This document shows positions 559 to 40,553 of a stretch of 64,000 bases of DNA, piece after piece. Position numbers and translations under genes: made by a program. Position 1 is the first letter of the stretch. Every line of letters begins with the position of its first letter. The notes beneath the pieces were generated by a model. It searched no databases. It was not told the origin of the DNA and saw nothing but the letters and a program-made list of their open reading frames with translations. This stretch comes from a virus (taxonomy: Duplodnaviria; Caudoviricetes), in IMG/VR virus record IMGVR_UViG_3300028797_000145, positions 1 to 64,000 of that record; one strand, written 5' to 3'.

Positions 559-1223
559 AAATATCAATACCGAAATTCTTTCTTTTTAGCTAAAGGAGGT
601 GTATACCTCCAATAAGGCCTGTATTGGAAAGGTCATATGAAAATATCAATGCGGGTAAAACCGCCATATGTGAGCCCTATATAAGGCCCTATATAGCCAA
701 AAATATCAATGGCTCTATTGATGTTTTTACTGTCGAGGATCTATAGAGACTATTAATGAGCGAAAATATCAATTTGGGTTTGCTCATAGCCTCCATAGAC
801 CCTTATAAGTATGACAGAAAGGGGTTGCAAATATCAATGCACCACAATTAGGAAAGCACTAAGAGGCCTTGTTAGGCCTCCGAGTACTGTAAATATCAAT
901 TAGCGCTTGCTTGTACATAAGAATTGTGCCTATAAGGGCTACTATTCAATGAAAATATCAATACTGTCCAAGCTGCTTCTAATACTATTGTGTAGTAAGT
1001 AATGTTTAAGCGCTAAAAATATCAATGTGTCAAATCTGAAACCCAATTATTCCACTATTGGATACTATACAAAAGCCTTTCAGAGAAAAATATCAATGCT
1101 CTAATTAGCTCTTTTAAACGTATAGCATCTATAGCGGAGAAGTAATTGATAATCTTAAAAATATCAATGCTATTTAGTGTAGTCAGACGGCCGAACCTTC
1201 TTATACAGGTTGAAAATATCATT
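559..1223. repeat. Array of AAATATCAAT repeats with unique spacers (10 exact copies plus 1 variant)
   Basis: AAATATCAAT starts at 559, 641, 701, 764, 829, 891, 953, 1017, 1088, 1159; AAATATCATT at 1214. Spacings 82, 60, 63, 65, 62, 62, 64, 71, 71, 55 bp. The region is non-coding apart from the last copy. Confidence 0.9.
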
Positions 1224-1418
1224 GTCGATGATCTCGTCAATCCCTCTTTCAACTTCAGCATCCTGTTCTTCGTCTGTCATGTCATCTGTGATGTCACAAA
1301 CTCTGTCAAGATACGAACAACTGTTGTAACCTTTCTGGGAATCAAAAAGTAACCAGGAAGTGAAATCGTTGAACGGATTATACGGATTGTCAACCGTAGT
1401 AATTGCTACATTTGCCAT
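1170..1418 (-). CDS. Small phage hypothetical protein (acidic, DNPYNPF motif) downstream of the RNA polymerase gene
   Basis: 82-aa ORF with a good RBS, directly following the 956-aa ORF on the same strand. Confidence 0.75.
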   Translation of the reverse strand: MANVAITTVDNPYNPFNDFTSWLLFDSQKGYNSCSYLDRVCDITDDMTDEEQDAEVERGIDEIIDNDIFNLYKKVRPSDYTK

Positions 1419-1436
1419 TCTTATTCACTTCCTTTC

Positions 1437-4307
1437 TTAGTTTCCACCAGTAAGATACTTCGAAACTGTCGAAGTACTAAGTCCAAGAGCTTTCGCAATC
1501 TCAGAATTTGTCTTTCCCATTGCAGCCATCGAATTGATTCTCTGTTGTTTAGCAGGAGTAACTTCTTTGAACGATCTAGGAGTTGCTCTTTCTCTAAGTT
1601 TGTCAGTATCTGTATACTGGAGAATCTGTGATAGCTTGTTTTCGGAAATTGCTCCAGACTGAATAGCTTCCCATTCTTTGTCATCAATATCAATAGGGTT
1701 TCTTTTAGCTCCTGTCTGGATTCTAGCCTTTGTTAAAGCTTGTTGACTTAACTTCTGGTATTCTTTCTTGTTGTTCTTGACAGTAGGCTCCATAGCAACT
1801 CGTCTTGCTAACTCTCTGTTTGCTATTAATTGAGCCTGTGTTTCTTTTTGCTTATTAGACTGAGCAAATTTCAGTTTCTCATCTAGAGACTTTACCTGAT
1901 CCTGGTAAACTTTAGCTGCTTCTTTCTTATACTCAAGACGATTTGTGTAAACCATCTCTTTTCTTGCCTCATTAGCCAATGACTTCAATTTATTGGCATA
2001 ATCGGCATAAGCTAGCTCTATAGGATGCCTCTTTTCAGATATCAATTTATAGGCATCGTCTACTTCTGCCATTTGCTTACTTCCCTGGGTCTTTTGTTTG
2101 ATCTTCCCAGTTTCGTAATACTTGGTACGCTCCTTACCATTCTCATCAATATAAGTCTCATTGATGAATTTTCCATTCTTATCCTTCAAATATCTACCAG
2201 TCTCAGGATCTACTTTTCTGACCGGTTTTCTATCAGGATACTCGAGGTCATATGCATTCTTAAATATCAATGCCCCTTCAGGCTTCGACGGGTCATACCA
2301 CTTTTTACCCTTCTGATTGATATTTGCATCTCCTCTTCTTCGCAAAACTGTTTCCGGAGCAGACGCTCTAGATATAATAGTACTTGCTCCCATGCTATCT
2401 TTTCCGTTCTTTCCTTCATGGAGCATGTACTTCTTTCTCAAAAGGGAAATATCATTGTCTGCTTCGGACTGTTTGTAGTCCAAATGATGCTTTTCGGCAT
2501 CGATGACAACCATAGAATGCCTAACCGCTTTTTCGATTTCATCATCGCTTGCACCTTTGATGGTCATATCAGTTATCAAGTTAGAAACCCTGCCCATTTC
2601 CTGCTGGGTATTCTTCATCTCTTTCATTCCAGGACGATATGCATATTCCATCTTTGCATCGAAATCTTTAAGTCTTTCGAAAGGTGGTCTGGAATCGATC
2701 TTTATTTTATCATTTGTGGGAATAACCATAACCGTATCCCCATCAAAGTCGGCACCAGAAAGCTGATCTGCAACTTCTTTTCGAATTCCAACCGCATCTT
2801 TGGGGTTGGTTCCAAATATCCTTTTACCTTCAGCATTCTTATTGTTAACTGTCAAGATTGGAATCTCGAAAGTGCCTCCATGAGGAAATCTCACAAGTGC
2901 AACTTTTTCACCATCTTGATAGTTTGGTGCATAGATCTCATTCTGCTTCAAAGAAGTCAATGGTAATATAACTTGATACTGTTGTCTTGGTAAAGCAGCA
3001 GCTTTCAAATGAACAGAAGCGGAATCACAATTGTTAGCAAACTCTTTTAAAAGTTTCTTCTTAATTGTTGGGTTTTCAAGATTGTTAATCTCTGCAAACT
3101 CCGTTTCTTTATCCGCAATTGCTAGATCAAGCTGTCGGTTAACCAATTTTCTGTTCTGCTTTGCCAAAAACTGAGAAGGGAGGTCATGACTCCATTCGCC
3201 CCAATCACCTTCGTCGCCTCTTTTGTTAATTAGAGACATCTTTTCTTCACCGGTCTTGGGATCAATATAATCGTACTGGCCACCTTTCTCTTTTATCAAC
3301 GATCCAAATGGATTTTCCGGATCATTTTTGATCTTCTTAAGAACTGTGTTGTTCTTGTCATCTCCTAATATCGGAGTTCCTTGCTTCTTGTTAGTATTAA
3401 ATCTCACATCAATACCATCTGGAAGGTCATCAGCATATACAGCCATACCTTTCAAATAGTGAGTTCCATCAACAAGAATTCTAACCTGAGCATAGTTAGA
3501 CTCACCCAACGAAATATCAGGCACTCCTCGTCTAAGCTCAATCACACCGTCTTTGTCAACACCGCCTTCTTCAGCGTACTTGACTTCGAGTCTTTTAGGA
3601 TCCAAACTCTGAGGATATCTAAAAGGCTTAGTGATCTTTTCTCCATCCTTGGTCAAGATTTCATCGTTGGTGTGATCCTTCAATGTATGAAGCTTCGAGA
3701 AATCGTAAATATCTTTGTACTCTGTTCCAGGAGGGCACACAACACTAACTGTTGTATACTTTCCAGGATTTGTTACCTGAGGGATTCTACGATTATAAAC
3801 TTCATAGCCTTGCTGTTGTAAAAGCAATACAGCTTCGTCAAGTTTCTCTTTAGAAACCTGAATTCCTTCTTCTCGCTCTACACCGGGCGATAATATAATT
3901 GGTCCTTTACTGTCTACAGCATTCTTCAAAAACTGGGATGCAGTTTTAGCTTTGTTTGCCCGCTCAACTGCGTTCTCGTTGAGCAACGACCTTACAGAAC
4001 TCTCTCCAGCAAGACCAAGCTCTTTCGCAATTGCTTCTTTACTCCATCCATCATTTAGTAGCTTCTTAGCTTGAGCTCGCTGATCGTTCTTAACCTCATC
4101 CTTAGCCATACGATATATCTTTCTAAGCTGTGTGGTTGTTGTATTAAACTTCTCAGCGATTTCTTTTTCGCTCAATCCTTCTGACCTGTACTTGTTGTAT
4201 CTGGTGTAAACATCAGTCATGTGCTGAAACGGATTCTCACCAGAACCCCAAGGATATCTACCAGATCTGCGAGGCATGCCATAGTGCTCAAGTTCCATAA
4301 ATATCAA
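1437..4307 (-). CDS. Putative single-subunit two-barrel (YonO/RdRP-like) DNA-dependent RNA polymerase with three HTH motifs
   Basis: Catalytic-type LSGADFDGDTV motif (DxDGD), upstream RFPHGG and YLKGMAV motifs; HTH-like segments GLSEKEIAEKFNTT and GWSKEAIAKELGLAGESSVRSLL at the N-terminus and GKTNSEIAKALGLSTSTVSKYL at the C-terminus. The start may be Met at 4298. Confidence 0.75.
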   Translation of the reverse strand: MIFMELEHYGMPRRSGRYPWGSGENPFQHMTDVYTRYNKYRSEGLSEKEIAEKFNTTTTQLRKIYRMAKDEVKNDQRAQAKKLLNDGWSKEAIAKELGLAGESSVRSLLNENAVERANKAKTASQFLKNAVDSKGPIILSPGVEREEGIQVSKEKLDEAVLLLQQQGYEVYNRRIPQVTNPGKYTTVSVVCPPGTEYKDIYDFSKLHTLKDHTNDEILTKDGEKITKPFRYPQSLDPKRLEVKYAEEGGVDKDGVIELRRGVPDISLGESNYAQVRILVDGTHYLKGMAVYADDLPDGIDVRFNTNKKQGTPILGDDKNNTVLKKIKNDPENPFGSLIKEKGGQYDYIDPKTGEEKMSLINKRGDEGDWGEWSHDLPSQFLAKQNRKLVNRQLDLAIADKETEFAEINNLENPTIKKKLLKEFANNCDSASVHLKAAALPRQQYQVILPLTSLKQNEIYAPNYQDGEKVALVRFPHGGTFEIPILTVNNKNAEGKRIFGTNPKDAVGIRKEVADQLSGADFDGDTVMVIPTNDKIKIDSRPPFERLKDFDAKMEYAYRPGMKEMKNTQQEMGRVSNLITDMTIKGASDDEIEKAVRHSMVVIDAEKHHLDYKQSEADNDISLLRKKYMLHEGKNGKDSMGASTIISRASAPETVLRRRGDANINQKGKKWYDPSKPEGALIFKNAYDLEYPDRKPVRKVDPETGRYLKDKNGKFINETYIDENGKERTKYYETGKIKQKTQGSKQMAEVDDAYKLISEKRHPIELAYADYANKLKSLANEARKEMVYTNRLEYKKEAAKVYQDQVKSLDEKLKFAQSNKQKETQAQLIANRELARRVAMEPTVKNNKKEYQKLSQQALTKARIQTGAKRNPIDIDDKEWEAIQSGAISENKLSQILQYTDTDKLRERATPRSFKEVTPAKQQRINSMAAMGKTNSEIAKALGLSTSTVSKYLTGGN

Positions 4308-4864
4308 TCCTCCTCGCTCTTAATCTTGGTGATGATCTTGTCAAAAGTAATGATCTTGTCCATGATCGGTGCAATGTCTTCCACCGTAGGATTGCATACT
4401 AAAATATCATCGTTCTGGTAGATACGCAGTTCCATTCCCAAGTCTGCTGGCTTGTACTTGTACTCCAAACAGAACAGAGCTGCATAAATCATTAACTGTT
4501 CCATGTGTGCTGGTATCAGACCAGTCTTCAAATCGTGAATTCTCAAAAGACCTTTCTTGTCCAATACAATTGCATCAGCTGTGCCGAAACAGTTGTCTGA
4601 AAAATATAAAACCTGCTCCGGTTTCATTCCGAAACCAATAGCATCATTCACGTACATGTTCAAAGTTTTCTGAGATCTTGGTAATCTCTGGTCCAACTTG
4701 ATACAAGTAGCCGCAAACTCATGAAGTTCAGTACCTCTTAAAGTTGCGAGGTGTTTAGAATATACCTCACCAATCTTTTCCGGATCGTAATTGATCCAGT
4801 GGTACTTACTTGCTCCGAGGAATGCGTGCTGTCCTACTAGGTTTGAATGCTTGTTCCAAATCAT
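4304..4864 (-). CDS. PD-(D/E)XK exonuclease (Cas4/DUF2800-like)
   Basis: CFGTADAI ... IHDLKTG ... QLMIYA motifs typical of phage RecB/Cas4-like nucleases. Confidence 0.7.
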   Translation of the reverse strand: MIWNKHSNLVGQHAFLGASKYHWINYDPEKIGEVYSKHLATLRGTELHEFAATCIKLDQRLPRSQKTLNMYVNDAIGFGMKPEQVLYFSDNCFGTADAIVLDKKGLLRIHDLKTGLIPAHMEQLMIYAALFCLEYKYKPADLGMELRIYQNDDILVCNPTVEDIAPIMDKIITFDKIITKIKSEED

Positions 4865-5126
4865 CGAGAACCTCCTCCTTGTTCTCAGGACTAATAAATC
4901 TTGAGAACGACATCTTGTTCATCAACTCAACATAGTATGGTTGATTAGGTCTCTTTTTGGCATTCTTCTCCTTTTTGCATTCCAGGGTTGCCCACTTCTT
5001 CTTGTACAATATCAATAGGTCGGGTACTCCTTGTTTGTACCTGGGATCCAGTTTCATTACCAAGCAACCTTCAAACCTTTCTTTTAGCTCTTTAATGAGC
5101 TTGGATTGAAAATCACTTTCCTTCAT
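4806..5126 (-). CDS. VRR-NUC domain nuclease (Holliday junction resolvase-like)
   Basis: MKESDFQSKL...GVPDLLIL...LECKK...RPNQ pattern; start moved to MKESDF at 5126. Confidence 0.75.
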   Translation of the reverse strand: MKESDFQSKLIKELKERFEGCLVMKLDPRYKQGVPDLLILYKKKWATLECKKEKNAKKRPNQPYYVELMNKMSFSRFISPENKEEVLDDLEQAFKPSRTARIPRSK

Positions 5127-5201
5127 AAGCAACGTCCTTTCAAAAGCAAAGAGAGAAAGAAATTTTTGTGCGTACAAAAAGTGCGCATAAAACGTCTCTC
5201 T

Positions 5202-5230
5202 CTCATAAAAGGGCATGATTTTTCTGCGAA
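5202..5230 (-). promoter_or_regulatory. Phage-specific promoter-like element (TTCGCA-N14-TTTTATGAG) upstream of the nuclease/RNAP operon
   Basis: Same 29-bp architecture as 17 other copies (see findings). Confidence 0.65.
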
Positions 5231-5282
5231 TGCCAAAAATATAAATTTTGTTAGTAGTCGGAACTTCTATACTCTGTTCTAC

Positions 5283-5621
5283 TCAGCTGTAAATATCCTC
5301 GTAGTCTAGAAATGCTCTGCTATTCTGTTCCAACTGCTCGAATACTACTTTCTCCTTTACTTCATCTTCACATTTCTTGCAAACAAACTTGCCTTCCATC
5401 CATCCGTCTGATGACTCATAGTCGAGATACTCATTACACTTCTCACAGAAGACTGCTATCTGCAAAATATCATTAGGGCTTTTGTCTGTCTTGTTGGTCT
5501 TTCCTCTAAGTTCATCTTCACCAACTTTAACACACTCGCTCTTAGCCACCAACTTCCCATTAATCTCTTTAAAGACAATTACAAAGTCTTGTCCGTAAAT
5601 ATCATTGTACTCATCTCTCAT
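5283..5621 (-). CDS. Hypothetical protein with C-terminal Zn ribbon (CEKC...CKKC)
   Basis: 112-aa ORF with two CxxC pairs. Confidence 0.65.
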   Translation of the reverse strand: MRDEYNDIYGQDFVIVFKEINGKLVAKSECVKVGEDELRGKTNKTDKSPNDILQIAVFCEKCNEYLDYESSDGWMEGKFVCKKCEDEVKEKVVFEQLEQNSRAFLDYEDIYS

Positions 5622-5734
5622 TCACTCACCGACTTTCTCAACCAGATCTCAAAAATATCAACAACCGCAAAACTAAAAGTTATTGCAATTGTACCTATAC
5701 CTCTGTTGAAAGTCAACAAGCTTCAAAGAAAATA

Positions 5735-6079
5735 TCATTCCGCGTACGGACACTCTCCAACAAACTCCGGATCTTTCTCTTTATCCTTCTTCTTATCTCT
5801 GCGATCTTTCACGAAAGCAATCACAACATCTTTTCGACAGAGTAACATTCCTCCGGTCTTAATCCCGTTGCATGCTTTCTCAACTTTGAACAAGTTGTAT
5901 CCTTCGTCAGAGAGTTCACCAAGAATATCAATAAACTCATTGTACGTAATTGAGCCGCACTCCTCAGAGCTCATCAATTCCGTGGTGATGTTAACTCCAC
6001 CTTCCTTGTCCGCTTTCTCCCTTAACCACTCTTTAACTTTTTTGTAGTCAGGAGATCTCTTGATCAACTTATTACTCAT
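5735..6079 (-). CDS. Hypothetical protein
   Basis: 114-aa ORF on the coding strand, composition like its neighbours. Confidence 0.6.
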   Translation of the reverse strand: MSNKLIKRSPDYKKVKEWLREKADKEGGVNITTELMSSEECGSITYNEFIDILGELSDEGYNLFKVEKACNGIKTGGMLLCRKDVVIAFVKDRRDKKKDKEKDPEFVGECPYAE

Positions 6080-6084
6080 AAGTC

Positions 6085-6550
6085 ACAAATCCGTCCTTTC
6101 TCCAAAAATATCATTTACAGCAACCTCAACACTAAAAATCACAATTACACATTTTTGTCCGTACATTAATCACAATTTGTTCACAATTTCTACATCACCG
6201 ATTATTGTCCGTACATTAATCACAAAAATCCTCAATTTTTACCTCGTGGCCAAAAACCCAAAAATTTTCGCTAAAACTTTTTATTTTTAGGTCTAGAATT
6301 TAAAAAGTCTTAAAAAAAAAATGGGTTTTTGGGCTTTTTCTGTACGTACAAAAACGTCTAGCCCAGTGTTTATCGGGGTTTGCGGGGTATGAGTCCGTGG
6401 CCAAACTATCAAAAAAAAATGGGCGAAAAGCCCAAATATTTGGGCGAAATCGACATTTTTTGCAAATTTTCATTTTTGTGCACACAACAATTTTCACGAT
6501 TTTTTGCAAAAACCCAAATTTTCCAAAAATATTTGGCCACAAAATTCACA
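6085..6550. repeat. AT-rich, A/T-tract non-coding region with direct repeats (origin-like)
   Basis: TGTCCGTACATTAATCACAA exact at 6156-6175 and 6206-6225; recurrent (C/G)TGGCCAAA/TTGGCCAC and AAAACCCAAA; long A/T runs. The ORFs here translate to low-complexity K/F-rich shadows. Confidence 0.55.
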
Positions 6551-6554
6551 CTTT

Positions 6555-6791
6555 TTACCCAACTTTTTCTGTTTTTGTCCGTACAAATTCGACCAGTTTT
6601 TGGCTACATTTTCGACAAAAATGCTGAATTTTACCATTATTTGAGTACAAATTCACCTGAATTTTATCCCGATTTGCCTTCGAATTACCCATATGTTCCT
6701 TCGGAATAGCCTCTCCGCACATGTCACAATGGTAAAATATCACCTGAATTGGGCCAAATTCACCCCTAAAATCCTCTCTAAAGACCTCCAT
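6555..6791 (-). CDS. Small Zn-binding hypothetical protein (CDMC...CRKC)
   Basis: RBS GGAGG, two CxxC pairs. Confidence 0.6.
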   Translation of the reverse strand: MEVFREDFRGEFGPIQVIFYHCDMCGEAIPKEHMGNSKANRDKIQVNLYSNNGKIQHFCRKCSQKLVEFVRTKTEKVG

Positions 6792-6808
6792 TTGACCTAA
6801 ATTACCTC

Positions 6809-6994
6809 CTATCTAGTCAAAAATATATAGGCCAGAACTGCAAAAAAGTACAAAATTACTGTGAAATCAGCGAAATTTGCGCCATTTGCATCCTCTTTAC
6901 CTACATTCGCAGCCAGCGTTATAGAGTATGTAATTAGGAATAGAAGGCTTAAGAACACCAAAAAGCATCTTAAAAATATCATTATTACCTCCAT
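6809..6994 (-). CDS. Small two-TM membrane protein
   Basis: 61 aa with two hydrophobic stretches; RBS GGAGG before the internal Met. Confidence 0.6.
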   Translation of the reverse strand: MEVIMIFLRCFLVFLSLLFLITYSITLAANVGKEDANGANFADFTVILYFFAVLAYIFLTR

Positions 6995-7162
6995 TTATCG
7001 ATAAAGCGTCCGTACACGGTCTTCAAAGTCATCCAAAATCTTTACTTTTTACATTTCCGGCCGAAAATATCACTTCAGAATACCTCTGTAAGGCCCAAAA
7101 TGGCCCATATAGAGCCTCCAAAAACCGCGTACAAACGCTATCGATCAACCTTTTAAAGCCTC

Positions 7163-7366
7163 TTAAATATAATTGTACGAGGCACAGGCCTTACAATCTG
7201 AGCATTGACGCTCAATACGTTCAGCCTTTATCAACTCATCAATACGCTCTTTTGACGTATTAGAAGCTACTTTCATTACACATTCCGGCATTTGATTCTT
7301 GCGAATATCCGAATCTGTGTAGCGAAGACCGGTAATTACACCGACATACTCAATTCCATTGCTCAT
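7163..7366 (-). CDS. Small hypothetical protein
   Basis: Adjacent to the upstream ORF, C-terminal CxxC pairs. Confidence 0.55.
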   Translation of the reverse strand: MSNGIEYVGVITGLRYTDSDIRKNQMPECVMKVASNTSKERIDELIKAERIERQCSDCKACASYNYI

Positions 7367-7603
7367 CTAGCAACCTCCTTTGCAACCAATATCAAGTTCT
7401 GTTCTTGGAAGGTTGTTTTCGTCTCCGCTTTTAGGTGGATTATCATGATAGTACTCAGATACGAGTTTTACCATCATGTGTTCCTTTGCTTCTTTTCGAC
7501 TACACCCTTCCTTTCTGCAGTATCGATCAATGTAACCATCGATAAGTTCCTGGATCTGTTCCTCTGTAGATTTTTTGTTATCTGCCAATGTCCTTTCCTC
7601 CAT
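7367..7603 (-). CDS. Small phage hypothetical protein
   Basis: 78 aa, good RBS, operonic spacing. Confidence 0.6.
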   Translation of the reverse strand: MEERTLADNKKSTEEQIQELIDGYIDRYCRKEGCSRKEAKEHMMVKLVSEYYHDNPPKSGDENNLPRTELDIGCKGGC

Positions 7604-7612
7604 TTACAAATA

Positions 7613-7852
7613 TCACCCGCGAACAATACCTTCTGATCCGGTATTACGAATGTTTACACGCGCAACCCCATTGTTCCAGTTCACAATAGCCAATGTCTCT
7701 GTCGGTGCTGTAAACTCCTGGTTAAACTTACAATCCAGTGACCCACATTTCAGAGAATATCTTTTTACCATTTCTGAAGGATCAGGGTGTCTCTTCACTT
7801 TAGGAGTATTTCCGCACTTAGGACAGGGGAGAATGTGAAAATTTGACTGCAT
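7613..7852 (-). CDS. Lar-family restriction alleviation-like Zn-finger protein
   Basis: LPCPKCG...CGSLDC...LAIVNWNN matches the Lar-like pattern (LxPCPFCG...C..C...A...WN). Confidence 0.55.
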   Translation of the reverse strand: MQSNFHILPCPKCGNTPKVKRHPDPSEMVKRYSLKCGSLDCKFNQEFTAPTETLAIVNWNNGVARVNIRNTGSEGIVRG

Positions 7853-8156
7853 TTCTTCTATACCTCTCTTTCAACTCAAGTAATTCTTCCAGCGTTTCGC
7901 TGTCCCTCTTAAGTAATTCTTGATGCTCACGTCTCAAACTCAGATAGTTAGACAAGAGATTTGCATACTTGTATACGAGAAGATTGTACTCTGCGTGAAT
8001 ATCATTGTCTTCCCATTCAGAAGCCTCGTCTAAGTAATCACTAAGCCCAGCCTCATCGAGATCTCCACACGTGTCTTCATCGTAGAGAATATCCTCCTCT
8101 ACCTCATCTTCTAAGTATTGGTGCTCAGGTTCGAACACTTTCTTTATACTGATCAT
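7818..8156 (-). CDS. Acidic coiled-coil hypothetical protein
   Basis: 112 aa, D/E-rich N-half and heptad-like C-half. Confidence 0.6.
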   Translation of the reverse strand: MISIKKVFEPEHQYLEDEVEEDILYDEDTCGDLDEAGLSDYLDEASEWEDNDIHAEYNLLVYKYANLLSNYLSLRREHQELLKRDSETLEELLELKERYRRNAVKFSHSPLS

Positions 8157-8167
8157 TTATTACCTCC

Positions 8168-8419
8168 TCATTCATCTTCTCTAAGCGAATCAATCATGGC
8201 TTCAATGTGATCACGGATGAAGTCCAGTTTGCATCGTTCAAGTTCTTTAGGTGCAACCACCCAGGTAATTTTTGCATCTGTGTCTTTGTCAAGAACCACG
8301 ATACGAATATAACCAGACTTTCCAAGTCGTCCTTTATTAAATGTAAAAGAGACTTCGAAGTTTTCCGGAATGAACACATTGTCCAATTCAGAATATAACT
8401 TGTATAAACAGCTGCTCAA
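8168..8419 (-). CDS. Hypothetical protein
   Basis: 83 aa, 4-bp overlap with the upstream gene. Confidence 0.6.
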   Translation of the reverse strand: MSSCLYKLYSELDNVFIPENFEVSFTFNKGRLGKSGYIRIVVLDKDTDAKITWVVAPKELERCKLDFIRDHIEAMIDSLREDE

Positions 8420-8775
8420 TTAATCACTTCCTTTTTTAAATTGTATTTGAAGAACGCTTTACGATTCTCGAAATTCTTTGGATCGTACGTACCATTCTTC
8501 AAAGCTTCGTAAATATCATGCTCCATGCTCTTAAGGAACTCCCACTCAAACCAGAATCGGCCATACCTTTCGGACTCATATAGAATGATTACCCAGCCTT
8601 CATCTAGTTCCGAGTTAAATATCCCGGTGATAGCAAATGATAGAGAGCAAGGATCGACTACTTCCATGTATTTCTTGAGAGCGTCATTACACTCACCAAA
8701 ATATAAGAAGTTAGCTTTACTTCCGATCTTGACTTTTTCTCCTTTGTACGCGTCAATAGCTTCTTCAAGAGTCAT
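8416..8775 (-). CDS. Hypothetical protein
   Basis: Start moved to MTLEE (RBS GGAG upstream). Confidence 0.55.
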   Translation of the reverse strand: MTLEEAIDAYKGEKVKIGSKANFLYFGECNDALKKYMEVVDPCSLSFAITGIFNSELDEGWVIILYESERYGRFWFEWEFLKSMEHDIYEALKNGTYDPKNFENRKAFFKYNLKKEVIN

Positions 8776-9029
8776 ATTCCAAACTCCTCCAGTTCCGAGT
8801 AAAATATCAACAAGGCTTAAGTTTGTCCGTACTGATCCAAGCACCTGCGGGACTACCACTGCTTAGTTTTACATCATCCGACCAGTACTTCTGTTCGTAA
8901 GGGTGCCGGTGAGTGAACAAGTACTTTTTGCCGTTATACAAGAAATATCTTCCTGCGAAAGGCGGTTTCTTTACGGACAGGTTAGCCTCAATCACCATGT
9001 CGTAATCCTTCATCTCAAGTTCTTTCTCT

Positions 9030-9450
9030 CTACTCATGTGTTTCCTCCTCGTTAATAGTGGGTTCGTACTTGGCAAGCTTCTCTCTTAGCTTCTGTATCG
9101 TACGCTGCTGAGCATCAATGATCTTGCGATCGAGAATCAGCAAGTTTTTCAATGCCTCAGCAAATTCATCCAGTTCATTTTTTTCTGCTTCCGAAATATC
9201 TTTATTTTCGTCTTCCAACTTACTTAACCTCCTTCTTATACTTTGGATTTGTGGTGTGCTTGCATTCCTTTTGGCACGAAGTCTTCTTGCACTCGGTGTT
9301 TTTCTCAGGATCGCACAAGTACATAGGCTCAAAACCGTAGAACGTGAATACACCTTCTTTGTCGCATGCCTTAAATACCGGTGGTTTCCTAAGAATATAA
9401 GTAGTCCCCTCGTACGTAAGACACCCGTAACCTCCTGCCTTTCCAGCCAT
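9030..9450 (-). other. Two overlapping small ORFs (9030-9353 coiled-coil; 9220-9450 Cys-rich); true starts uncertain
   Basis: ORF track; located between the helicase and the downstream small genes. Confidence 0.4.
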
Positions 9451-10745
9451 TACTTCACCTCCCCATAGTTTTTAGTAACCTGAAATGGTTGTTTGAAAAT
9501 ATCATTGCTGATGAATTTCGTTTCATTAAACTTCTTCTTTTCGCTCAGAGCCTTCTCGATGGATAAGTCAATGTGAGATCTGGTCTTGAGATGGTAATAC
9601 CAGAGATCTACATACTTGGTGTTCATTCGATCAATACGACCCGCTGCCTGCTCCATAATTCGATAGGAGTAGTTCGGTGAGAAGAATATAATAGTGTCGG
9701 TTGTGATGCAGTTCCAACCCTCAGCACCTGATGAGTACTGCACTAAATATACCCACTTGTCTCCTTCTGGTATTGGATCGTGTCTCTGGCCGTTGCACTC
9801 TGCTATTTGGTAGCCTTGATCTTCCAAGCAAGACAAGTTTTCTTTGAGCATCTCTAGTTCGGCAATCAGGTTGTAAAATATAATTGTCTTAGGATGCTTG
9901 TCTACCAGCTCAAGCACTTTAACCATTCGTGATACATCGGTGTTTACTAATCGTCGTAGGCAATAGCAATACTCGGATGCATTCTCGATTGGTTGGCCTT
10001 TGAATATGTTCCATCGCTCTTTGGTGATCTGCTTGTACAAGTTGCGGTCGTAGTCTACGTAAATATCCTCATGGTGGACTACCGTTGGCTTCTTTACAGG
10101 AATATCCACAAGTAGAGAGTCTCTGTATCGTGCCAGCTTCTTTGTTCCAAGATAGCGATCAATCTTAGGGAAGTTTGTGAATGGTGAAAATATCACATGC
10201 TCGTTGTTGAACGCTGTTCGGTTCGGATAGAATCCATTTGCGATGAAGACTGGTATGTAATCTTCCCATTTGTCTCCAGGAGTTGCAGAGAGTAGAATCC
10301 ATTTGTTTCCACGGGCAATTTTCAAGAATGACTTAACCCAAGATCCTCGACCTACAACTCTTTGCTCGTCAAATATAAAGAAGGCACCTTTTACACCGGC
10401 ATACTTTCCTATGTTGTTCCAGCTGTCAACTACTACTTTGTTTTGGTAATAGTTGAGCTCGGGAATCGTACTTAGATGGAACGGAATCATCTCGTCTTCC
10501 CATTCCTGCGAGTCTCTCTTTTTTGCTGTGGTGATGATGTATAGATCTACAGGTTGACACATCTCTTGTGGTTCGTAGTTGTTTTTTACTTTTTCCCATT
10601 CACTAAATACTTCTCCACCTTGAGAAATATAATAGTAGGCTAGAGAGGTCCGGCTTTTACCAGACCCCACTCCACCACAAAGTATGCAACCGTTGTGCAT
10701 CTTGCTTACAGCTTTCCTCTGAGCTTCATTAAGTAACTCAGCCAT
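9450..10745 (-). CDS. SNF2/DEAD-like superfamily 2 helicase
   Basis: Walker A GGVGSGKS, motif II FDEQ, LLSATPG, QYSSGAEGWN, motif VI QAAGRIDR. Confidence 0.9.
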   Translation of the reverse strand: MAELLNEAQRKAVSKMHNGCILCGGVGSGKSRTSLAYYYISQGGEVFSEWEKVKNNYEPQEMCQPVDLYIITTAKKRDSQEWEDEMIPFHLSTIPELNYYQNKVVVDSWNNIGKYAGVKGAFFIFDEQRVVGRGSWVKSFLKIARGNKWILLSATPGDKWEDYIPVFIANGFYPNRTAFNNEHVIFSPFTNFPKIDRYLGTKKLARYRDSLLVDIPVKKPTVVHHEDIYVDYDRNLYKQITKERWNIFKGQPIENASEYCYCLRRLVNTDVSRMVKVLELVDKHPKTIIFYNLIAELEMLKENLSCLEDQGYQIAECNGQRHDPIPEGDKWVYLVQYSSGAEGWNCITTDTIIFFSPNYSYRIMEQAAGRIDRMNTKYVDLWYYHLKTRSHIDLSIEKALSEKKKFNETKFISNDIFKQPFQVTKNYGEVK

Positions 10746-10772
10746 ACTTTTGTCCTTTCTTTTTTTTAAATA

Positions 10773-11498
10773 TCAACGATACAGTCTTCTGCAAGGACCG
10801 CCACGAGTTCCTTTATGCTCATTTTTCTTGAGATCTGGAAGGAGCTGCTCCATAGCTTCGAATGTCTTGCATTCCATTCGGAATGAAAGTACCCACATGT
10901 ATCCTCGCTTAAAAAGTTCGTTGTCTGTTGTATTCCTGGTAATTCTGTATTTGGAAATGGATCCGCTCTTCTTCTCATGAGCTTCGAAATCATCTTCCCA
11001 CTCAGTAGCGAACTCCTTAGCCGTCTCCTGCGATTTGAAATATATATAACGCTTTGTCGGTCTTTTCTTAGGAGTAATGTAAACGGATTCAGAAATATCA
11101 TTCTCTTTAGTTTCTTTCGAGAGCGGTTTGAGACTGCAATTTTCGGATACCAACGTAGCACCCTTGAACTGCGAAAGGTATGACCCAAGAGTCTGCGGTT
11201 CTTTAGTCTCTTTTCTTTCCTCTCTCTTTTTTCTGGCTTGTTCTTCTTTGTTCACAAAATATGAATTGTACTTGGAACGGTCCTCAAACCAGTTTTTGCT
11301 TATCTCGGAATCGTCGAGTTCTGGAACATCAGAAACCGCCTTCTCCTTAGGCTGCTCGAGACAAATATCCAGGTGGACAATCCCGGTTCCACCGGTTCCG
11401 AAGTTGTATTTACTAACTTCATACTGCCCGAGACCCATGTGATTCATGTTCATCAAATCGTTAATAAGTTCTCCAAATGTCATAATTTTTTCCTCCAT
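10773..11498 (-). CDS. Hypothetical protein
   Basis: 241-aa ORF with RBS GGAGG. Confidence 0.7.
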   Translation of the reverse strand: MEEKIMTFGELINDLMNMNHMGLGQYEVSKYNFGTGGTGIVHLDICLEQPKEKAVSDVPELDDSEISKNWFEDRSKYNSYFVNKEEQARKKREERKETKEPQTLGSYLSQFKGATLVSENCSLKPLSKETKENDISESVYITPKKRPTKRYIYFKSQETAKEFATEWEDDFEAHEKKSGSISKYRITRNTTDNELFKRGYMWVLSFRMECKTFEAMEQLLPDLKKNEHKGTRGGPCRRLYR

Positions 11499-11525: not shown

Positions 11526-11566
11526 AAGAAGAAAGAGCCCTGGTAAATATAACCCAGAGCTCCTTC
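11526..11566 (-). terminator. Intrinsic terminator-like hairpin with UUAUAUUU in the loop
   Basis: Minus-strand GAGCUCUGG-GUUAUAUUUA-CCAGGGCUC-UUUCUUCUU; a G-U pair indicates the minus-strand RNA. Confidence 0.7.
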
Positions 11567-11745
11567 TCCATAATGGAATGTGTTAATATTGCGATCATCT
11601 AAATAGCCTACCATTACGACCTACAGTTTTCGAATAATACTGCTGCCAAAAACCATCGATCGAACAGTAATGCATAGCTAAAAATAGATCAGGCTTGTCA
11701 TTGTCATCTTCTTCATCATCCAAATCATCTGAATCAGAAATATCA

Positions 11746-20228: not shown

Positions 20229-20245
20229 AAATATAACTCCTTCTC

Positions 20246-25086: not shown

Positions 25087-25322
25087 TAATTCACCTCCTT
25101 AATAAAAAGAGCCCCGGAAATATAACTTCCGAAGCTCTGTGATCAGTCCTCAAGGTCGTCTTCTATCGACGGGTTGTTTCTGAGGAAGTGCTCTTTCGCT
25201 TTCTGCTTGTTAGCAGCGAATGTTGTGTCTAAAATATGACCGGCACTATCTTTTAAACAGAACAGATCATACATCTCGTCGTTTACACTTTCGTCTTTTA
25301 CTATGCTATACATAACTACCTC

Positions 25323-25942: not shown

Positions 25943-27306
25943 CTAGTCCATAGAATTGCTAGAACCGCATTTTGGACAATAAAGCATATCCTCAACCACA
26001 TTTCGAGCATACTTCCCAATGCTGCAATGACTGCAATACCACCAGCCGGTGTCTCCTTGAATCCAACGTCCCGTTTTCTTCGTAGGTATTACATACTGCA
26101 TATGTTTTATCTTTTCGACTAAGTGCAGTTTGGAATCAGCGACTGGGTCTGACATTATCATTTCGATAACCTCTTCGCGACTTATCGCATCATCAGTAAC
26201 TTGACATTTTGTGAGTTTAAGTTGGCCACTTTCCTCTCCGTACTCGAGCAGCCACTTGTCTCCTTTTTTCGCCCTTTCTAGCTTTTGACCCATTTGCACA
26301 CCCTGATTATAGGCATGCCTTAGACGATTCTCGATACTCATGAGATCATCTTTTATAGATCTTTCTTTTTCCTGTAAATATTCCTCTTCTCTCATTCTTC
26401 TACCTCACATTCCTTTTTATTAGCAACTCGATCCTTTTTATGGAACATCACAAACCGTTTTTTCTTGTCACCACAGAAGGGGCAATACTTATACTTTACA
26501 ATGTTACCAAAATATGACAGCTCCTCTGAGCATACCGAACAACGATAATTACCCGATTCTGTCTCTATCCATTTACCATACACTGATCGACCATTGTTGA
26601 TTTCAAGAGTCTCTTCAATTACACAAATTCGATCTTGAAGATTAAGTATTCTTGAATAAACATCAGATTCAAACATCGTTATTCACCTCCTTATGAAGAT
26701 ATCCTGCATATCTATAACTCTTTCACAGATATCACTCGCTAATTCCATTGCTTCTCTATCGGAACCGCTCATTTGATACCAATCAGCAATAGACTTAAGT
26801 TGATCTGGTAATGGATCATGTGTCTCTTTTACCGTTTCAAACACAAATTTACTTTTCATCGGCTTTCCACAATTGGGGCAATATTTACCCGGCATTTTTC
26901 CCCTTATACTAGTTGTGTATTCCCATTGGAAATCACAATTTTCACAATGTACCAAATATTCGTGCAATTCAATGCCTGAATCACTAGTGATAACTGTAGA
27001 TCTATCTACTATCCAATACGACATTTAATCATCTCCTTTCAAATTCTTCGAACCACACGTCGGACAATATACCGTTTTTTCTTCTGTCTCCATAGGTAAA
27101 TCACAATTAGAGCAGAAATATCCGATAATCTCCATATCTTCGTTTTCTATTGGAATCCAGCTTCCAACCTTCTGCTGTGACGTTGCGGGCGGCAATTTAT
27201 CAATAGTTATGTGCATCCTTGCAATCATGTCATCATCTATGTAACCCCTCCATCTTGAAATATCTTTTTTTACAAGGTTTCGATCTACAGCGTCACAAGT
27301 ATTCAT
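25943..27306 (-). other. Four tandem small ORFs with W-I...CxxC...YCPxCG Zn ribbons (25943-26395, 26392-26676, 26683-27024, 27025-27306)
   Basis: Shared GxWI...C(S/E)xC...YCP(K/F/N/T)CG motif, overlapping start/stop codons. Confidence 0.7.
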
Positions 27307-30219: not shown

Positions 30220-30837
30220 ACTTCCTCACCTTCCTGTGGATCAAAAATATCATTACTAGAATCCATGAAGTTCACCTCCACATCTTTCGGGCATAGGGCT
30301 ACGATGAATCCTGCAGGTAGCATTACAATCCCGGATTCCATTTGTTTGATAAGCGTATCATATGTCCTTTTCATATTTTCTTTTTTCATAAGAAATGGAG
30401 CCCGAATTACCAAAATATCATTCTTCCTATTATGTTTACTTGGCTTTTCTTTCCACGACATCTGCTTTCTCCTCCTTTTCATCAGGAACCCATTTTCCTT
30501 CATATTGAGGTAACCATCCAGGTAGACCAAATATGCTAGGCATATTGACTCTTGCATTTTTGACAAAAGTCTTGTCTGTAACAACATAACATTTCTCTTC
30601 CTCAGCAAAAGGACTCCAAACGATTGGGATGGCTAAACCTGCTTTATACCACAACTCGGGAATAATATCCTTATGCTTCGGGTTAAGGATCAGAGCGAAG
30701 TCTTCTTTGATGTCACCGGATTCTTTTCGCTCTTCAAATATCTTTTTTTCAGTGGATTCTATTATAGCCTGCATTATCTTTTCTACGTCCTGTTCGAAAG
30801 GACTACTCGTTAAAAAATCATTCATCTTTTTCCTCAC
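30216..30837 (-). other. Two small hypothetical ORFs (about 30216-30469 and about 30436-30825)
   Basis: ORF track; starts uncertain. Confidence 0.45.
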
Positions 30838-31006
30838 TTTCCTGTCTGCGTTCAGTCATCCACGTATTGAGACTTTCTCGACATTCAGTACATACATCCC
30901 ATATTCTTCCGTGACTTGAAATGCAAAAGTTCAAATCTTTGATATGATCTACAAATATTGCGGGTTCCATTTCCTTACCGCAAATATCACATACTGTTTT
31001 TTTCAT
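30818..31006 (-). CDS. Small Zn-finger protein (paralog of 29466-29648)
   Basis: KTVCDICGKEM...FCISSHGRIWDVCTEC. Confidence 0.7.
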   Translation of the reverse strand: MKKTVCDICGKEMEPAIFVDHIKDLNFCISSHGRIWDVCTECRESLNTWMTERRQESEEKDE

Positions 31007-36207: not shown

Positions 36208-36483
36208 GAATACCTCCTTTACTATCCTTTCCATAATAGAAGAAGTTAATATTGCAAAAAAAAAAAATAGAACGTGGGTTTCTCGTTAATGTCGATTCTG
36301 TATACTATATCAACAGCCATACTCCCCGCTTGTGTATGTTCCTACGTATTACCTTTGAGTATATTCGACTAACCTCAATGTAATCCATGTATACCTCTTT
36401 TTCCATTAAAGGATATGCAAATTTTGCGAAAAAGAATAGGGAGTGCAAATATCACACTCCCATAATCTTTTATCCTTCTAATT

Positions 36484-36678: not shown

Positions 36679-36801
36679 ACTGTTACCTCCTTTTTAAATA
36701 TAGATTTGCATGTGTCCATAAAGGAATATGTTATTATTGCGAAAAGAAAAGGAACAGACCTAGTAAATATCACTAGGCCTGCACCTTATTGGAAAGGAGG
36801 T

Positions 36802-38006: not shown

Positions 38007-39200
38007 ATGTTAATCAAATGCCCCGAATGTAGTTTGCAAATATCGGATAAAGCGGTGTCTTGTCCGCACTGTGGTTACCCTCTTAAACCGGAAGCCGTCC
38101 GTACACGGTCTTCAACTAGACGTAAAAGACTTCCAAATGGTTTTGGACAAATATCGAAAATCCGAAACAAATCACTCAGGAAACCTTACAGAGCTATGGT
38201 CTCTGTTGGAAAGGATCCGGAGACAGGAAGGCCAATATGTAAATTGCTTCAACCAGTTGCTTACTTTGCAACATACAATGAAGCTTACGAGGCTCTACTT
38301 AAATATAATAGAGATCCGTCCGTACAAGGCTCTAGCATGACCGTAGAAGAGCTTTTCAATGAATGGTCCGAATGGTACTTCCCAGCTCTAAGTAAATCCG
38401 CAATAGAGACTCATATGGTTGCGTGGAAATACTCAAAACTATTACATCATGTGAGAGTTTCTGAGTTAAGAACAAAAAATATAAGAGACTGTATCGATCA
38501 ATGTGAATCTCTTACTACAAAACCTAGAATTAAGACTCTATTTAGTTTAATGCTTGACTATGCAGTAGAACATGAATATATTGATCAGAACTATGCCAAG
38601 ATTATTAAACTAAACCCTACCATTGCAAAAGAGTTAGGCGTGGTTAAGAACAAACACATAGCATTTACTGAAGAAGAGATAAATATAATGTGGAGGAATG
38701 TTGACGAAGTGCCATTCGTTGATTGGATGTTAATACAATGTTACACTGGTATGCGTCCCAGAGAACTTCTCAATGTACAAGTAGAGAATGTGGATCTAAA
38801 CCAAAATATAATCATAGCTGGAATGAAAACGGATGCCGGTAAGGATCGAGTAATTCCTATCCATGCAAAAATAAGAGGACTTGTTAAAAGTAAGATACGA
38901 GTAGCTGAGTATTTAGATAGTCCCTATCTGTTTAATCAGCCAAATAGCATTGGTATGAGCTATACAACCTATAACAAATACTTCACAGAAATCGTGTTAC
39001 AGTTAGGGTTGAACGAGAAGCACCGACCTCATGATCCTCGTAAGACTTTTGTCACTATGGCCAAAAAATATAACGTAGACGAGTACGCAATCAAAAGAAT
39101 AATAGGCCATGCGACTGGTGACTTAACTGAGGATCGATACACCGAAAGAAATATAGAATGGTTAAAAGAAGAGGTAGAGAAGATAGGGAGCCCGGTTTAG
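38007..39200 (+). CDS. int: Tyrosine recombinase (phage integrase) with N-terminal Zn ribbon and arm-binding domain
   Basis: Catalytic residues: TGMRPRE (R), GMKT (K), HDPR (HxxR), IGH (H), DRY (Y); CPEC/CPHC Zn ribbon. Confidence 0.95.
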   Translation: MLIKCPECSLQISDKAVSCPHCGYPLKPEAVRTRSSTRRKRLPNGFGQISKIRNKSLRKPYRAMVSVGKDPETGRPICKLLQPVAYFATYNEAYEALLKYNRDPSVQGSSMTVEELFNEWSEWYFPALSKSAIETHMVAWKYSKLLHHVRVSELRTKNIRDCIDQCESLTTKPRIKTLFSLMLDYAVEHEYIDQNYAKIIKLNPTIAKELGVVKNKHIAFTEEEINIMWRNVDEVPFVDWMLIQCYTGMRPRELLNVQVENVDLNQNIIIAGMKTDAGKDRVIPIHAKIRGLVKSKIRVAEYLDSPYLFNQPNSIGMSYTTYNKYFTEIVLQLGLNEKHRPHDPRKTFVTMAKKYNVDEYAIKRIIGHATGDLTEDRYTERNIEWLKEEVEKIGSPV

Positions 39201-39373
39201 GACTCCCTTCCAAGTGATTCAAGAGTTTTTATTGATTCTAAGTATAGCCTGTCTTTCTCATCTTTCTTTCTGCCAGATTTCTTTATCTTGTAGATAGAGA
39301 GCGCCAGATCTGCAACAATTGCTAAACCAGATAAAAGTAAGATTTTGTTTTTCATTTTGATTACCTCCTTTAA
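39197..39373 (-). CDS. Single-TM small protein
   Basis: Likely start in MKNKILLLSGLAIVADLAL (RBS GGAGG); exact start approximate. Confidence 0.5.
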   Translation of the reverse strand, partial: LKEVIKMKNKILLLSGLAIVADLALSIYKIKKSGRKKDEKDRLYLESIKTLESLGRES

Positions 39374-39868: not shown

Positions 39869-39936
39869 CTCACACCCGGACTGCTACGAAAAGATACTAT
39901 CCCATTCTAAATAGAATGTCAAGGATCCTTTTCAAA

Positions 39937-39976
39937 TAGTGGACCGACCTGCTTGAGGGATACAAGCCAGCCCACT
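39937..39976 (-). terminator. Hairpin terminating the late (tail) operon
   Basis: GTGGACCGACCTGCTTG...CAAGCCAGCCCAC inverted repeat with G-U pairs on the minus strand. Confidence 0.5.
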
Positions 39977-40139
39977 ATTAACGAAAAGGAAAAAATATAT
40001 AAATTAAGACAAACCAATCCTGTGGATATGCACATGAGAGTAAAGGCAACAAATTTGTATTCAAATATCTGCTTAGGAGGGTCTTCCCCGTATGGGCTAC
40101 AAGGAGACTTTCAGGAAAGGCTGTCTTAACTCCGAAATA

Positions 40140-40553
40140 TCACTCCTCCACCATGAATTTAATAGTGGCGAAGTCCCCGGGAACCATGTCGAGGTTCTCG
40201 ATCTCGGTAATACTGATGGTATCAATCTCGACGTCATTCTCAACTAGGCCAAGCTCTTTGAGTTCATTTTGCCAGTCTTCGAGATACTCTGATTTAACCT
40301 TGCGGATTACTTCACCGGATTCCAGCGTTTCCTCAACAGACTTCTCATCCGTCGAGTACGATGCAATGATGCTGTCTCGCATTGTGTGCATCTGCTCAGA
40401 AATGGTTGCGAGACGTTTCCTGTTCGTCTCGATCTTCCACAGAAGTTTGATCGAAAGCTTCTTGGAAGGATCTTTTGTATTGCAGATGCTATCCGGCGCG
40501 TCGAGTTTTGAAATAATTTCTTCAACTTCAATATTAGTAAATTTCTTTGTCAT
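40140..40553 (-). CDS. Hypothetical protein at the end of the tail operon
   Basis: 137 aa, helical/acidic. Confidence 0.7.
   Translation of the reverse strand: MTKKFTNIEVEEIISKLDAPDSICNTKDPSKKLSIKLLWKIETNRKRLATISEQMHTMRDSIIASYSTDEKSVEETLESGEVIRKVKSEYLEDWQNELKELGLVENDVEIDTISITEIENLDMVPGDFATIKFMVEE

Follow-up and report, generated by a model that had tools for sequence, protein, structure and literature searches.

Short DNA words that are selected for density and for strand are already known, in the form of Chi, the FtsK-orienting polar sequences (KOPS), uptake sequences, and stoperators. The stoperators of cluster A mycobacteriophages, which are the sites bound by the L5 gp71 repressor, number about 30, are asymmetric and 13 bp long, and are scattered over the genome in one orientation relative to transcription. 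They often lie at gene boundaries of a temperate phage, and their sequence varies between related phages. The Chi sites of the phages LLS and MD8 lie on the top strand, with a polarity of ~7:1 to 32:0, and cluster close to the right end (PMC12315714). Here we examined a stretch of 64,000 nucleotides (the window) of the Caudoviricetes record IMGVR_UViG_3300028797_000145, in which the octamer AAATAT[CA]A recurs on one strand. The window covers the first 64 kb of one siphovirus contig, 86,891 bp long, from a bovine gut metagenome (a rumen phage). Nearly all genes of the contig are on the minus strand, and the word is therefore also given in its sense-strand form, T[GT]ATATT[TC]. A previous sequence-only reading had taken the octamer for a genome-polarized, directional DNA-level signal comparable in logic to Chi or KOPS.

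Enrichment and strand bias of the word

AAATAT[CA]A occurs 118 times on the plus strand of the window and 3 times on the minus strand, and the counts for the whole contig are 119 and 4. Both octamers are polar when taken singly, with plus versus minus counts of 56 versus 2 for AAATATCA and 62 versus 1 for AAATATAA. The interval from 559 to 40142 holds 106 octamers against 3 to 9 expected, with 37 at 559-11000 and 69 at 11000-40142; another 12 lie at 40142-64000 and 1 lies beyond 64 kb. A position table together with near-variant counts gave the consensus T-K-ATATT-Y with the core KATATT. In the window, T[GT]ATATT[TC] is found 147 times on the sense strand versus 4 times on the other, and the core [GT]ATATT is found 258 versus 25 times.

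An artefact of base composition, codon usage, or amino acid repeats is conceivable here, given a purine-rich sense strand, the commonness of AT-rich words, and the location of the genes on one strand. However, none of the Markov models of orders 1 to 4 reproduced the counts; for both octamers jointly in 1-40200, the expectation was 3.4 at first order and 8.6 at third order. Synonymous codons were also shuffled within every one of the early arm's 65 sense genes (1,000 shuffles), which gave 9.0±2.6 words with a maximum of 19, compared to 50 observed (z = 15.6). The retained orientation is in 12- to 30-fold excess over the Markov expectation and in 5.5-fold excess over the codon-shuffle null. The word is present in all three reading frames, and 40 of the 119 contig copies are intergenic, though intergenic DNA makes up roughly 9% of the contig. 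The flanks of the copies are unrelated, indicating that the word is not a dispersed repeat. Moreover, the strand is kept in the reversed integrase gene, and a relative with a 34% GC genome uses a GC-richer word. The word is thus real and selected at the nucleotide level, a coding or composition effect is excluded, and an artefact can be dismissed with near certainty. The sequence-only reading had estimated about 100 plus-strand copies with very few on the opposite strand, 4 to 5 copies by chance, and only about a dozen to the right of 40 kb. These estimates agree with the exact counts, and the enrichment survives strand-wise counting against the codon-preserving null.

Distribution and spacing of the copies

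Matches to PHROG and Pfam divide the contig into two arms. The structural arm (40.6-86.9 kb) carries the large terminase (80087-81820), the portal, a protease-capsid fusion, the major tail protein, the tape measure (63717-68813), and tail proteins reaching down to 40.6 kb. The non-structural arm (0.5-40 kb) carries a tyrosine integrase (38007-39200, plus strand, opposed to the sense genes), many small genes, a PARG-domain protein, a tRNA-Val, a D5-like primase-helicase of 1,434 amino acids, a helicase of 431 amino acids, and an exonuclease (phrog_3953) with a single-strand annealing protein (phrog_4787). Its last large gene (1437-4298) encodes a two-barrel RNA polymerase of 953 amino acids with helix-turn-helix (HTH) domains.

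The main feature of the distribution is a sharp step at the boundary between the two arms, at 40.1-40.6 kb. The dense domain (1214..40142, minus strand) contains 95 octamers, ~130 copies of T[GT]ATATT[TC], and ~200 copies of [GT]ATATT, essentially all on the sense strand. A sparse continuation runs through the tail genes (41725..58551, minus strand) with 12 octamers and none on the other strand, and the remaining 23 kb, with the tape-measure, tail-tube, head, and packaging genes, holds one octamer. Per 5 kb, [GT]ATATT is found 3 to 7 times in the head genes, 9 to 12 times in the tail genes, and 19 to 33 times in the early genes; the last bin, with the polymerase gene and a terminal array of the word, has 12. 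Gradients within the modules are no more than weak (rho 0.34, P = 0.11, and rho 0.44, P = 0.05). The signal is not genome-wide, and the head and packaging genes are largely spared. The two variants are also distributed by region. TG forms dominate at 0-12 kb and 28-36 kb, and TT forms dominate at 12-28 kb and 32-40 kb, so that the dominance of the CA octamer noted earlier at the left end stands for 0-12 kb but misses another peak of it at 28-36 kb. The closest matches of genes in the TG-rich stretch are in TG-type relatives, and those of several genes at 11-21 kb are in the TT-type genome G004, suggesting a mosaic ancestry.

Copies of the word avoid close neighbors. Distances below 40 bp make up 1.5% of the neighbor distances of the core, compared to 17.8±2.5% under uniform placement (5,000 simulations, of which the lowest gave 9.8%), and the coefficient of variation of the spacing is 0.84 versus 0.99 (P = 0.009). 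The deficit of close neighbors holds in the pool of seven word-rich genomes, and a minimal spacing of ~63 bp is reached in the array. The sites show no helical phasing, only the 3-nucleotide periodicity of coding sequence. Copies are unpaired somewhat more often than composition-matched 8-mers (0.48 versus 0.42, P = 0.02).

Even, coverage-type spacing of 150 to 400 nucleotides without close pairs, strict polarity regardless of gene direction, and a mild preference for the single-stranded state would all suit primer initiation. The sense word would then be a template site for the primase-helicase, or for a QDE-1/YonO-like polymerase acting on single-stranded DNA, and would give rise to short Okazaki fragments, provided that the sense strand is the lagging-strand template for forks moving with transcription. 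A word that is phage-specific and swappable would fit as well, a core-protein reader would fit the lack of a correlated accessory gene, and the complement of the word begins with AAA, which in our own estimation is a plausible primer start. However, primers on the lagging strand are required over the whole genome, whereas both strands of the head and packaging arm are nearly empty. Relatives with a primase-helicase of 50 to 58% identity are wordless, as are the cultured phages 1706 and Circum, and no origin-like inflection was seen in the cumulative GC skew. We consider primer initiation quite unlikely.

The integrase gene has five copies on the genome-wide (minus) strand and none on the other, at 38301..39073 (starts 38301, 38477, 38681, 38804, and 39066, each where the sequence-only reading had placed it). 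Synonymous shuffling within this gene gives an expectation of 1.58±1.04 (P = 0.003), and the ratio of AATAT to ATATT in the gene is 10:1. The 3' end of the integrase gene is faced by a sense promoter-like element at 39619 and two small sense genes, with a weak terminator-like hairpin (39185-39208) between those genes and the integrase gene. Since only this weak hairpin intervenes, antisense read-through of the integrase gene is possible. The proposal of a directional DNA-level signal therefore stands insofar as the signal is directional, acts at the nucleotide level, and is selected for density, but the claim that its polarity follows the chromosome and not the mRNA is drawn from one gene.

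The word fills the spacer between the Shine-Dalgarno sequence and the start codon at 4299..4306 (minus strand) and also at 20229 and 45725, the same examples that had been given before. It lies just upstream of the Shine-Dalgarno sequence at 12259, 24914, 32217, 33353, and 46795. Such regions hold only a minority of the copies, and the sense-strand location holds throughout. Terminator loops had been named as a further location. About five terminator-like hairpins do contain the word, at 36439..36461 (minus strand), 36754-36782, 25108-25138, ~11530-11575, and ~19245-19275 (word at 36447, 36765, 25118, 11545, and 19256, respectively), but this is not significantly more than the intergenic density predicts. 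A flanking stem of at least 5 bp is found for 16 of the 119 copies, compared to 10% of random positions, and ~3 of 14 good sense-strand terminators bear the word; neither result is significant.

Terminal array and genome ends

An array of 11 copies of an extended word, with the sense form C-ATTGATATTTT-Y (559..1221, minus strand), separates the end of the polymerase operon from the contig end, which is the putative cos end. Octamers start on the plus strand at 559, 641, 701, 764, 829, 891, 953, 1017, 1088, 1159, and 1214. The spacing is 55 to 82 bp, mostly 60 to 65 bp, with spacers that are structured and unique in sequence. Folding of the region is much better than that of shuffled sequences (z = -7.4), and the copies in it are mostly unpaired (0.64 versus 0.42 for composition-matched 8-mers, P = 0.003). 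An Rfam scan of the window returned the tRNA only, so the array contains no known RNA family, and no terminator-like site was found in it. The relatives L003 and L042 have smaller arrays downstream of the polymerase gene.

The polymerase places the phage in a supergroup with Lactococcus phage 1706, Faecalibacterium phages, and several actinophage clusters (bioRxiv 10.1101/842583), and the polymerase gene is at the right genome end in all members of the supergroup. Many independent contigs, as well as end-defined actinophage genomes, stop just past this gene. GC-rich palindromic elements (GGGGAGGGGGT ... ACCCCCC, and TCTCCGGGGG) occur at both contig ends (window 1-60 and contig 86850-86891). 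The same palindromes neighbor each other in circularly permuted relatives (L012 13150-13230 and L039 13400-13440), each flanked by GATATT copies, and the region is probably the cos region. Because the palindromes are joined in the permuted relatives and the stop after the polymerase gene is shared, the contig ends look like real genome ends, which would put the array ~0.5 to 1.2 kb from the right cos end. The non-coding right end also has a short tandem array of AAAAATTS units (86-149) with periods of 8 to 28 bp, which may be bent DNA or a binding region.

This location next to the cos end bears on two further explanations. If the word marked the arm that is packaged last and ejected first, its reader would be the terminase, the portal, or a protein that coats or ratchets the entering DNA. 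The dense arm is the one far from the terminase genes, the array is next to the putative cos, GATATT flanks the GC-rich junction palindromes in several relatives, and density increases rightward in some genomes, all of which would agree with a role in packaging or ejection. However, the terminase and portal are 56 to 77% identical between word-rich and word-poor relatives, and the step lies at the module boundary and not at a fixed fraction of genome length. Helical phasing is absent, and the mechanics of a duplex would need no strand polarity. With the direction of packaging deduced indirectly, we regard this role as very unlikely.

Non-canonical phage polymerases use short promoters, and the word could accordingly be imagined as a minimal site at which the two-barrel RNA polymerase with its HTH domains initiates. 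In that case, the array would be a set of tandem late promoters acting across cos or, read in the opposite direction, would load the polymerase that pulls the DNA into the cell. Its position is exactly the gap that separates the polymerase operon from the first late gene on the other side of cos, and its ~60-bp spacing matches a footprint in size. The late operon of SPbeta is transcribed by YonO, from a promoter whose sequence is not known (PMC5467207). In addition, the records of phages 1706 and ReqiPoco6 label the polymerase homologue as a structural protein, a hint that the polymerase is carried in the virion. However, two-thirds of the copies are intragenic, the distance to gene starts is variable, the recognition helices of the HTH domains show no covariation with the word, and the late arm, which is the expected target of the polymerase, is without it. 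Moreover, a separate family of 14 to 18 promoter-like elements already lies upstream of small early genes, often right after a terminator hairpin. Their geometry is fixed and consists, on the sense strand, of a T-run, TTCGCA, a gap of ~16 nucleotides, and then TAATGG, TATATG, or TATTATG, and their plus-strand starts are 5204, 11559, 21491, 22444, 23462, 24343, 24527, 35224, 35494, 35795, 36226, 36398, 36711, 37105, 37464, 37901, and 39609. A promoter function of the word is slightly less probable still than one in packaging.

Related phages and the host chromosome

The polymerase is found at 44 to 79% identity in 47 viral contigs and in seven loci of metagenome-assembled genomes (MAGs), including related prophages in Oscillospiraceae and Ruminococcus MAGs, one of them a 53-kb prophage within a 2.9-Mb Oscillospiraceae MAG. 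No near-identical phage record was found. Many of these gut and rumen relatives share the polar word. Sense versus antisense counts of [GT]ATATT were 49:2 in L003, 44:2 in L007, and 91:11 in the prophage locus L051, and those of TKATATTY were 88:1, 64:4, and 83:4 in the whole genomes G002, G003, and G005, respectively. In contrast, TKATATTY counts in G007, G008, and G009 were 33:28, 22:19, and 16:28. G007 is flat, and in G008 and G009 the core [GT]ATATT is weakly sense-biased (~2:1) in the arm upstream of the polymerase gene. Core density among the relatives is continuous, from ~6.5 to 1.5 copies per kb. The left, structural 40% of the word-rich genomes is again sparse, with the arm restriction repeated in G002, G003, G004, and the G001 prophage. 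Lactococcus phage 1706 and Arthrobacter phage Circum, two cultured relatives which we take to be virulent, have no comparable polar word.

The form of the word differs among the relatives, being TG-, TT-, or GG-ATATT. The 13.2-kb IMG/VR contig L022, from a 34% GC genome with core genes in common, has a different word, C[GA][AT]TGGT, with sense versus antisense counts of 52:1 in 13 kb. Aligned with L003, its closest relative (DNA 74% identical across the polymerase region), the phage shares a few sites, whereas many are lineage-specific. Sites have been gained and lost via synonymous changes such as ATT/ATC and TAT/TAC, indicating that selection acts on density and not on fixed positions.

One host was tested, with 400 kb of the chromosome that carries prophage L051, in which the word and its cores were overall no commoner than expected. 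In this sequence TGATATTC occurred 17 times versus 10.7 expected and TGATATTT 5 times versus 14, so there is no enrichment. Nor is there a strand skew (plus versus minus 9:13, on a contig with mostly positive GC skew), and the flanks of the prophage are bare of the word. Since the chromosome of this lysogenic host is neither enriched nor skewed, the word is not a host Chi or KOPS; as had been proposed, the signal belongs to the phage lineage and not to the host.

A Chi-like function nevertheless merits consideration. The word, on the strand with its 3' end at the right cos, would attenuate or redirect a helicase-nuclease or recombination machine entering there, and would thereby protect first-entering or cos-cut DNA or drive recombination-dependent replication. 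The geometry matches that of LLS and MD8 (PMC12315714), with the word on the top strand of the terminase-left map. The 11-copy array is close to the right end, and density climbs rightward in G002, G003, and the genome of the window. Sites turn over, the trait is optional among relatives, the polarity ignores the orientation of the integrase gene, and an exonuclease, a strand-annealing protein, and helicases are present. In addition to the host result, however, the word is ~five times denser than Chi in the richest Chi phages, and avoidance of close neighbors is unexpected for a signal of cumulative probability. Chi richness in lambdoid phages goes with the absence of a Rec module (PMC12315714), and such a module is present here. 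The last 7 kb before cos are sparse in the G001 prophage, the two variants of the word are segregated by region, and entry via the right end is deduced from the terminase-left gene order and the contig ends. We judge a Chi-like function unlikely. The geometry thus resembles that of Chi clusters, but the analogy with Chi or KOPS fails on host enrichment and on spacing, which for Chi-type signals would be indifferent.

The differences in the word among relatives also recall the specificities of restriction-modification systems. It could have arisen secondarily from the action of an enzyme, of the host or of the phage, that has an asymmetric target, through evasion of type III or type ISP restriction by site orientation or as a motif for one-strand methylation or nicking. 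The words have 7 to 8 nucleotides, are asymmetric, have degenerate positions, and occur almost wholly without the reverse orientation, and the host chromosome is neither enriched nor depleted. However, evasion explains the loss of one orientation and not the 12- to 30-fold excess of the other, neither a methyltransferase nor a nickase was found among ~60 early-arm proteins compared to Pfam and PHROG, and a genome with one to two hundred nicks would be without precedent. This origin is highly improbable. A host restriction motor hijacked to pull the DNA in was set aside by reasoning only, as progeny DNA would be methylated at its sites.

Possible function in the timing of expression

We tentatively propose, with a probability of roughly 35%, that the word is a phage-specific polar tag that damps or times expression in the sense direction. 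One-arm restriction, near-absence from the late genes with the highest expression, intermediate density in tail genes, and coverage-type spacing favor a function tied to expression class over one in genome maintenance. The reader appears to be on the phage side and not the host's, and to have an evolvable specificity, since the word differs or is swapped between relatives, sites turn over, and the host is not enriched. We infer the action on expression, its negative sign, and the level, DNA or RNA, at which the word would be read.

In this proposal, the word would be a cis-acting, strand-specific recognition site for a factor of the phage lineage, which would act on the non-structural arm along the direction of gene expression. 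Sites would be maintained at ~1 per 150 to 400 nucleotides, at least ~40 to 50 nucleotides apart, and would occupy sequence that is cheaply changed, namely, synonymous positions, intergenic spacers, and hairpin loops. The factor could be a DNA-bound protein that obstructs or terminates RNA polymerase moving in one direction. Alternatively, the word could be cut or bound in the transcript, giving short-lived early and middle messages. The highly expressed head and packaging genes would stay word-free, and the 11-copy array would shield the late genes, which come next across cos in the circular or integrated form, from read-through.

Several observations support an expression tag. The density of the word falls as the expected demand for protein rises, and the copies are always on the mRNA-like strand and somewhat unpaired. 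They are placed in spacers between the Shine-Dalgarno sequence and ATG, just upstream of Shine-Dalgarno sequences, and in terminator hairpins. An integrase is found in 5 of the 7 word-rich genomes, and the two cultured relatives are wordless; the integrase is the sole, and partial, gene correlate of the word. Fewer features are accounted for by a promoter, by packaging or ejection, or by restriction orientation.

Other results weigh against a tag for expression. Its density is far above that of any described roadblock or cleavage-tag system, and the preference for the unpaired state is weak. The distal tail genes of the G001 prophage are as dense as its early genes. The full density in the integrase gene behind the hairpin at 39185-39208 makes reading at the DNA level easier to accept than reading at the RNA level. 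As a candidate mechanism, an operator or roadblock at promoters was rejected, the next downstream word being farther from the promoter-like elements than from random positions. No gene family tracks the word, either in tblastn searches of the window proteins against 40 loci or in all-against-all clustering of 12 genomes. The comparison of the ~60 early-arm proteins gave no repressor or nuclease candidate except the core exonuclease, which is also present in word-less relatives.

The sequence-only reading had offered the HTH-bearing RNA polymerase, a ribbon-helix-helix protein, or an Xis-like protein as the reader, and none of these is upheld. The recognition helices of the three HTH domains of the polymerase are equally conserved in phages of the TG (TGATATT), TT (TTATATT), and CRWTGGT types and in word-less relatives. 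No ribbon-helix-helix or Xis protein was detectable by Pfam in the early-arm set, in which the three HTH domains of the polymerase are the only ones. Small zinc-ribbon proteins with weak Pfam matches are encoded in the early arm (26392-27306, 30818-31006, and 5283-5621), and it is possible that they are nucleic acid readers.

If a phage factor does read the word, it would constitute a new and easily scored cis-regulatory or DNA-processing layer, and this layer would be at work in a widespread group of Oscillospiraceae and Ruminococcaceae phages from gut and rumen, which are related to Lactococcus phage 1706 and to the group of Faecalibacterium phages. Across 40 kb, synonymous sites are overwritten by the signal, which attests to its strength. 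It bears on how temperate phages without a recognizable repressor restrain dozens of promoter-like elements or time their early genes. The changed word of L022 amounts to a natural specificity swap with which the reader could be found. In practical terms, the word is a compact marker by which the clade can be recognized and its genomes oriented in metagenomes.

Other sequence elements

The late arm has a polar word of its own, with the sense form TTCAAAATGG (40200-64000, contig 64001-86891, L001, and L002). On the plus strand, ATTTTGA occurs 46 versus 3 times, with ~7 expected. About a dozen copies form the spacer between the Shine-Dalgarno sequence and the ATG of late genes, and many internal copies have ATG in frame. 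In the late region of Lactococcus phage 1706, TCAAAATG is found 7:0.

The right-end cassette at 1170-5216 is conserved from Firmicutes phages to actinophages. It contains a small protein, which is labelled an endonuclease in Circum, an exonuclease, the HTH-bearing two-barrel RNA polymerase, and an 82-amino-acid protein. In the stretch at 5600-7800, convincing sense-strand open reading frames are absent, the word is frequent, and two 32-nucleotide direct repeats lie at 6144 and 6194; this may be a non-coding or origin-like region. Its counterpart in the G001 prophage (C5, 120-124 kb) is AT-rich and without the word. The tRNA-Val at 22366-22439 has the anticodon AAC, which is unusual for a bacterial system.

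Other repeated k-mers were seen in relatives and hosts. L004, L017, and L018 have the heptamer CCCACTT 6 to 7 times per 10 kb versus 0.1 expected, upstream of the polymerase gene; this may be a different regulatory element. In contig C1 of the host MAG G001 (L058-L077), k-mers such as CCCCCTACGCGG and GTGGATTGAAAT occur on one strand in ~40 copies and resemble a CRISPR repeat array, and AGGAGCTT/AAGCTCCT are ~four-fold over-represented in the G001 host chromosome.

Comparison with known systems

A close likeness is to Chi-rich phages such as the Escherichia coli lambdoid phage LLS, Pseudomonas aeruginosa phage MD8, and P1 (PMC12315714). In these phages, as here, an octamer is the most frequent 8-mer of the genome, is polar on the top strand of the terminase-left map, becomes richer rightward, is selected for density, and is optional in close relatives. 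However, their word is the Chi of the host itself, abundant and skewed in the host chromosome, which is not the case here. Their density is ~1 per 1.9 kb, compared to 1 per 0.15 to 0.37 kb here, and the present phage has an exonuclease with an annealing protein, avoidance of neighbors, and an AT-rich word that varies among relatives. Chi-like geometry alone therefore does not identify a host Chi.

Stoperators, like the present word, are asymmetric sites in one orientation to transcription, and the phage described here also bears an integrase. In contrast to stoperators, there are 130 to 200 sites of 6 to 8 bp, mostly in coding sequence; the word does not lie at or downstream of the promoter-like elements, and the ~60 early-arm proteins yielded no repressor-like domain. 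RegB of phage T4, which targets GGAG in early mRNAs, likewise involves a short sense-strand word in early genes, partly in translation initiation regions, and a comparable system would permit class-specific inactivation of early messages. However, the target of RegB is the Shine-Dalgarno tetramer itself and is not dense in coding sequence, no endoribonuclease candidate was found in this phage, and reading of its word at the RNA level is hypothetical.

Primase sites (the 5'-GTC-based pentamers of T7 gp4 and the GTG of pRN1) resemble the word in their use of one template strand and in the importance of coverage over exact position. Unlike the word, the known sites have 3 to 5 nucleotides, are not reported to be enriched, and are needed genome-wide, and in this phage the head and packaging arm is empty. 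The co-oriented EcoP15I sites of T7, KOPS, and the SpoIIIE recognition sequences (SRS) share the near-perfect single orientation of an asymmetric word. The T7 case, however, is a loss of one orientation without excess, and KOPS and SRS are signals of the host chromosome that are skewed with replication, with no such skew in the host chromosome tested here.

With about the same reserve as the proposed action on expression, the word may be regarded as a new phage cis-code. It would be a lineage-specific, one-strand word of 7 to 8 nucleotides, occurring at ~1 per 150 to 400 nucleotides with a minimal spacing in one arm, capped by an array, and recodable to C[GA][AT]TGGT with the same core genes. 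A phage machine without a recognized domain would read it as a marker of self or of gene class, for transcription, RNA fate, or DNA processing. Compared to Chi, KOPS, uptake sequences, and stoperators, the word differs in being phage-specific, ~five times denser than in the richest Chi phages, evenly spaced, confined to one arm, and swappable between relatives.

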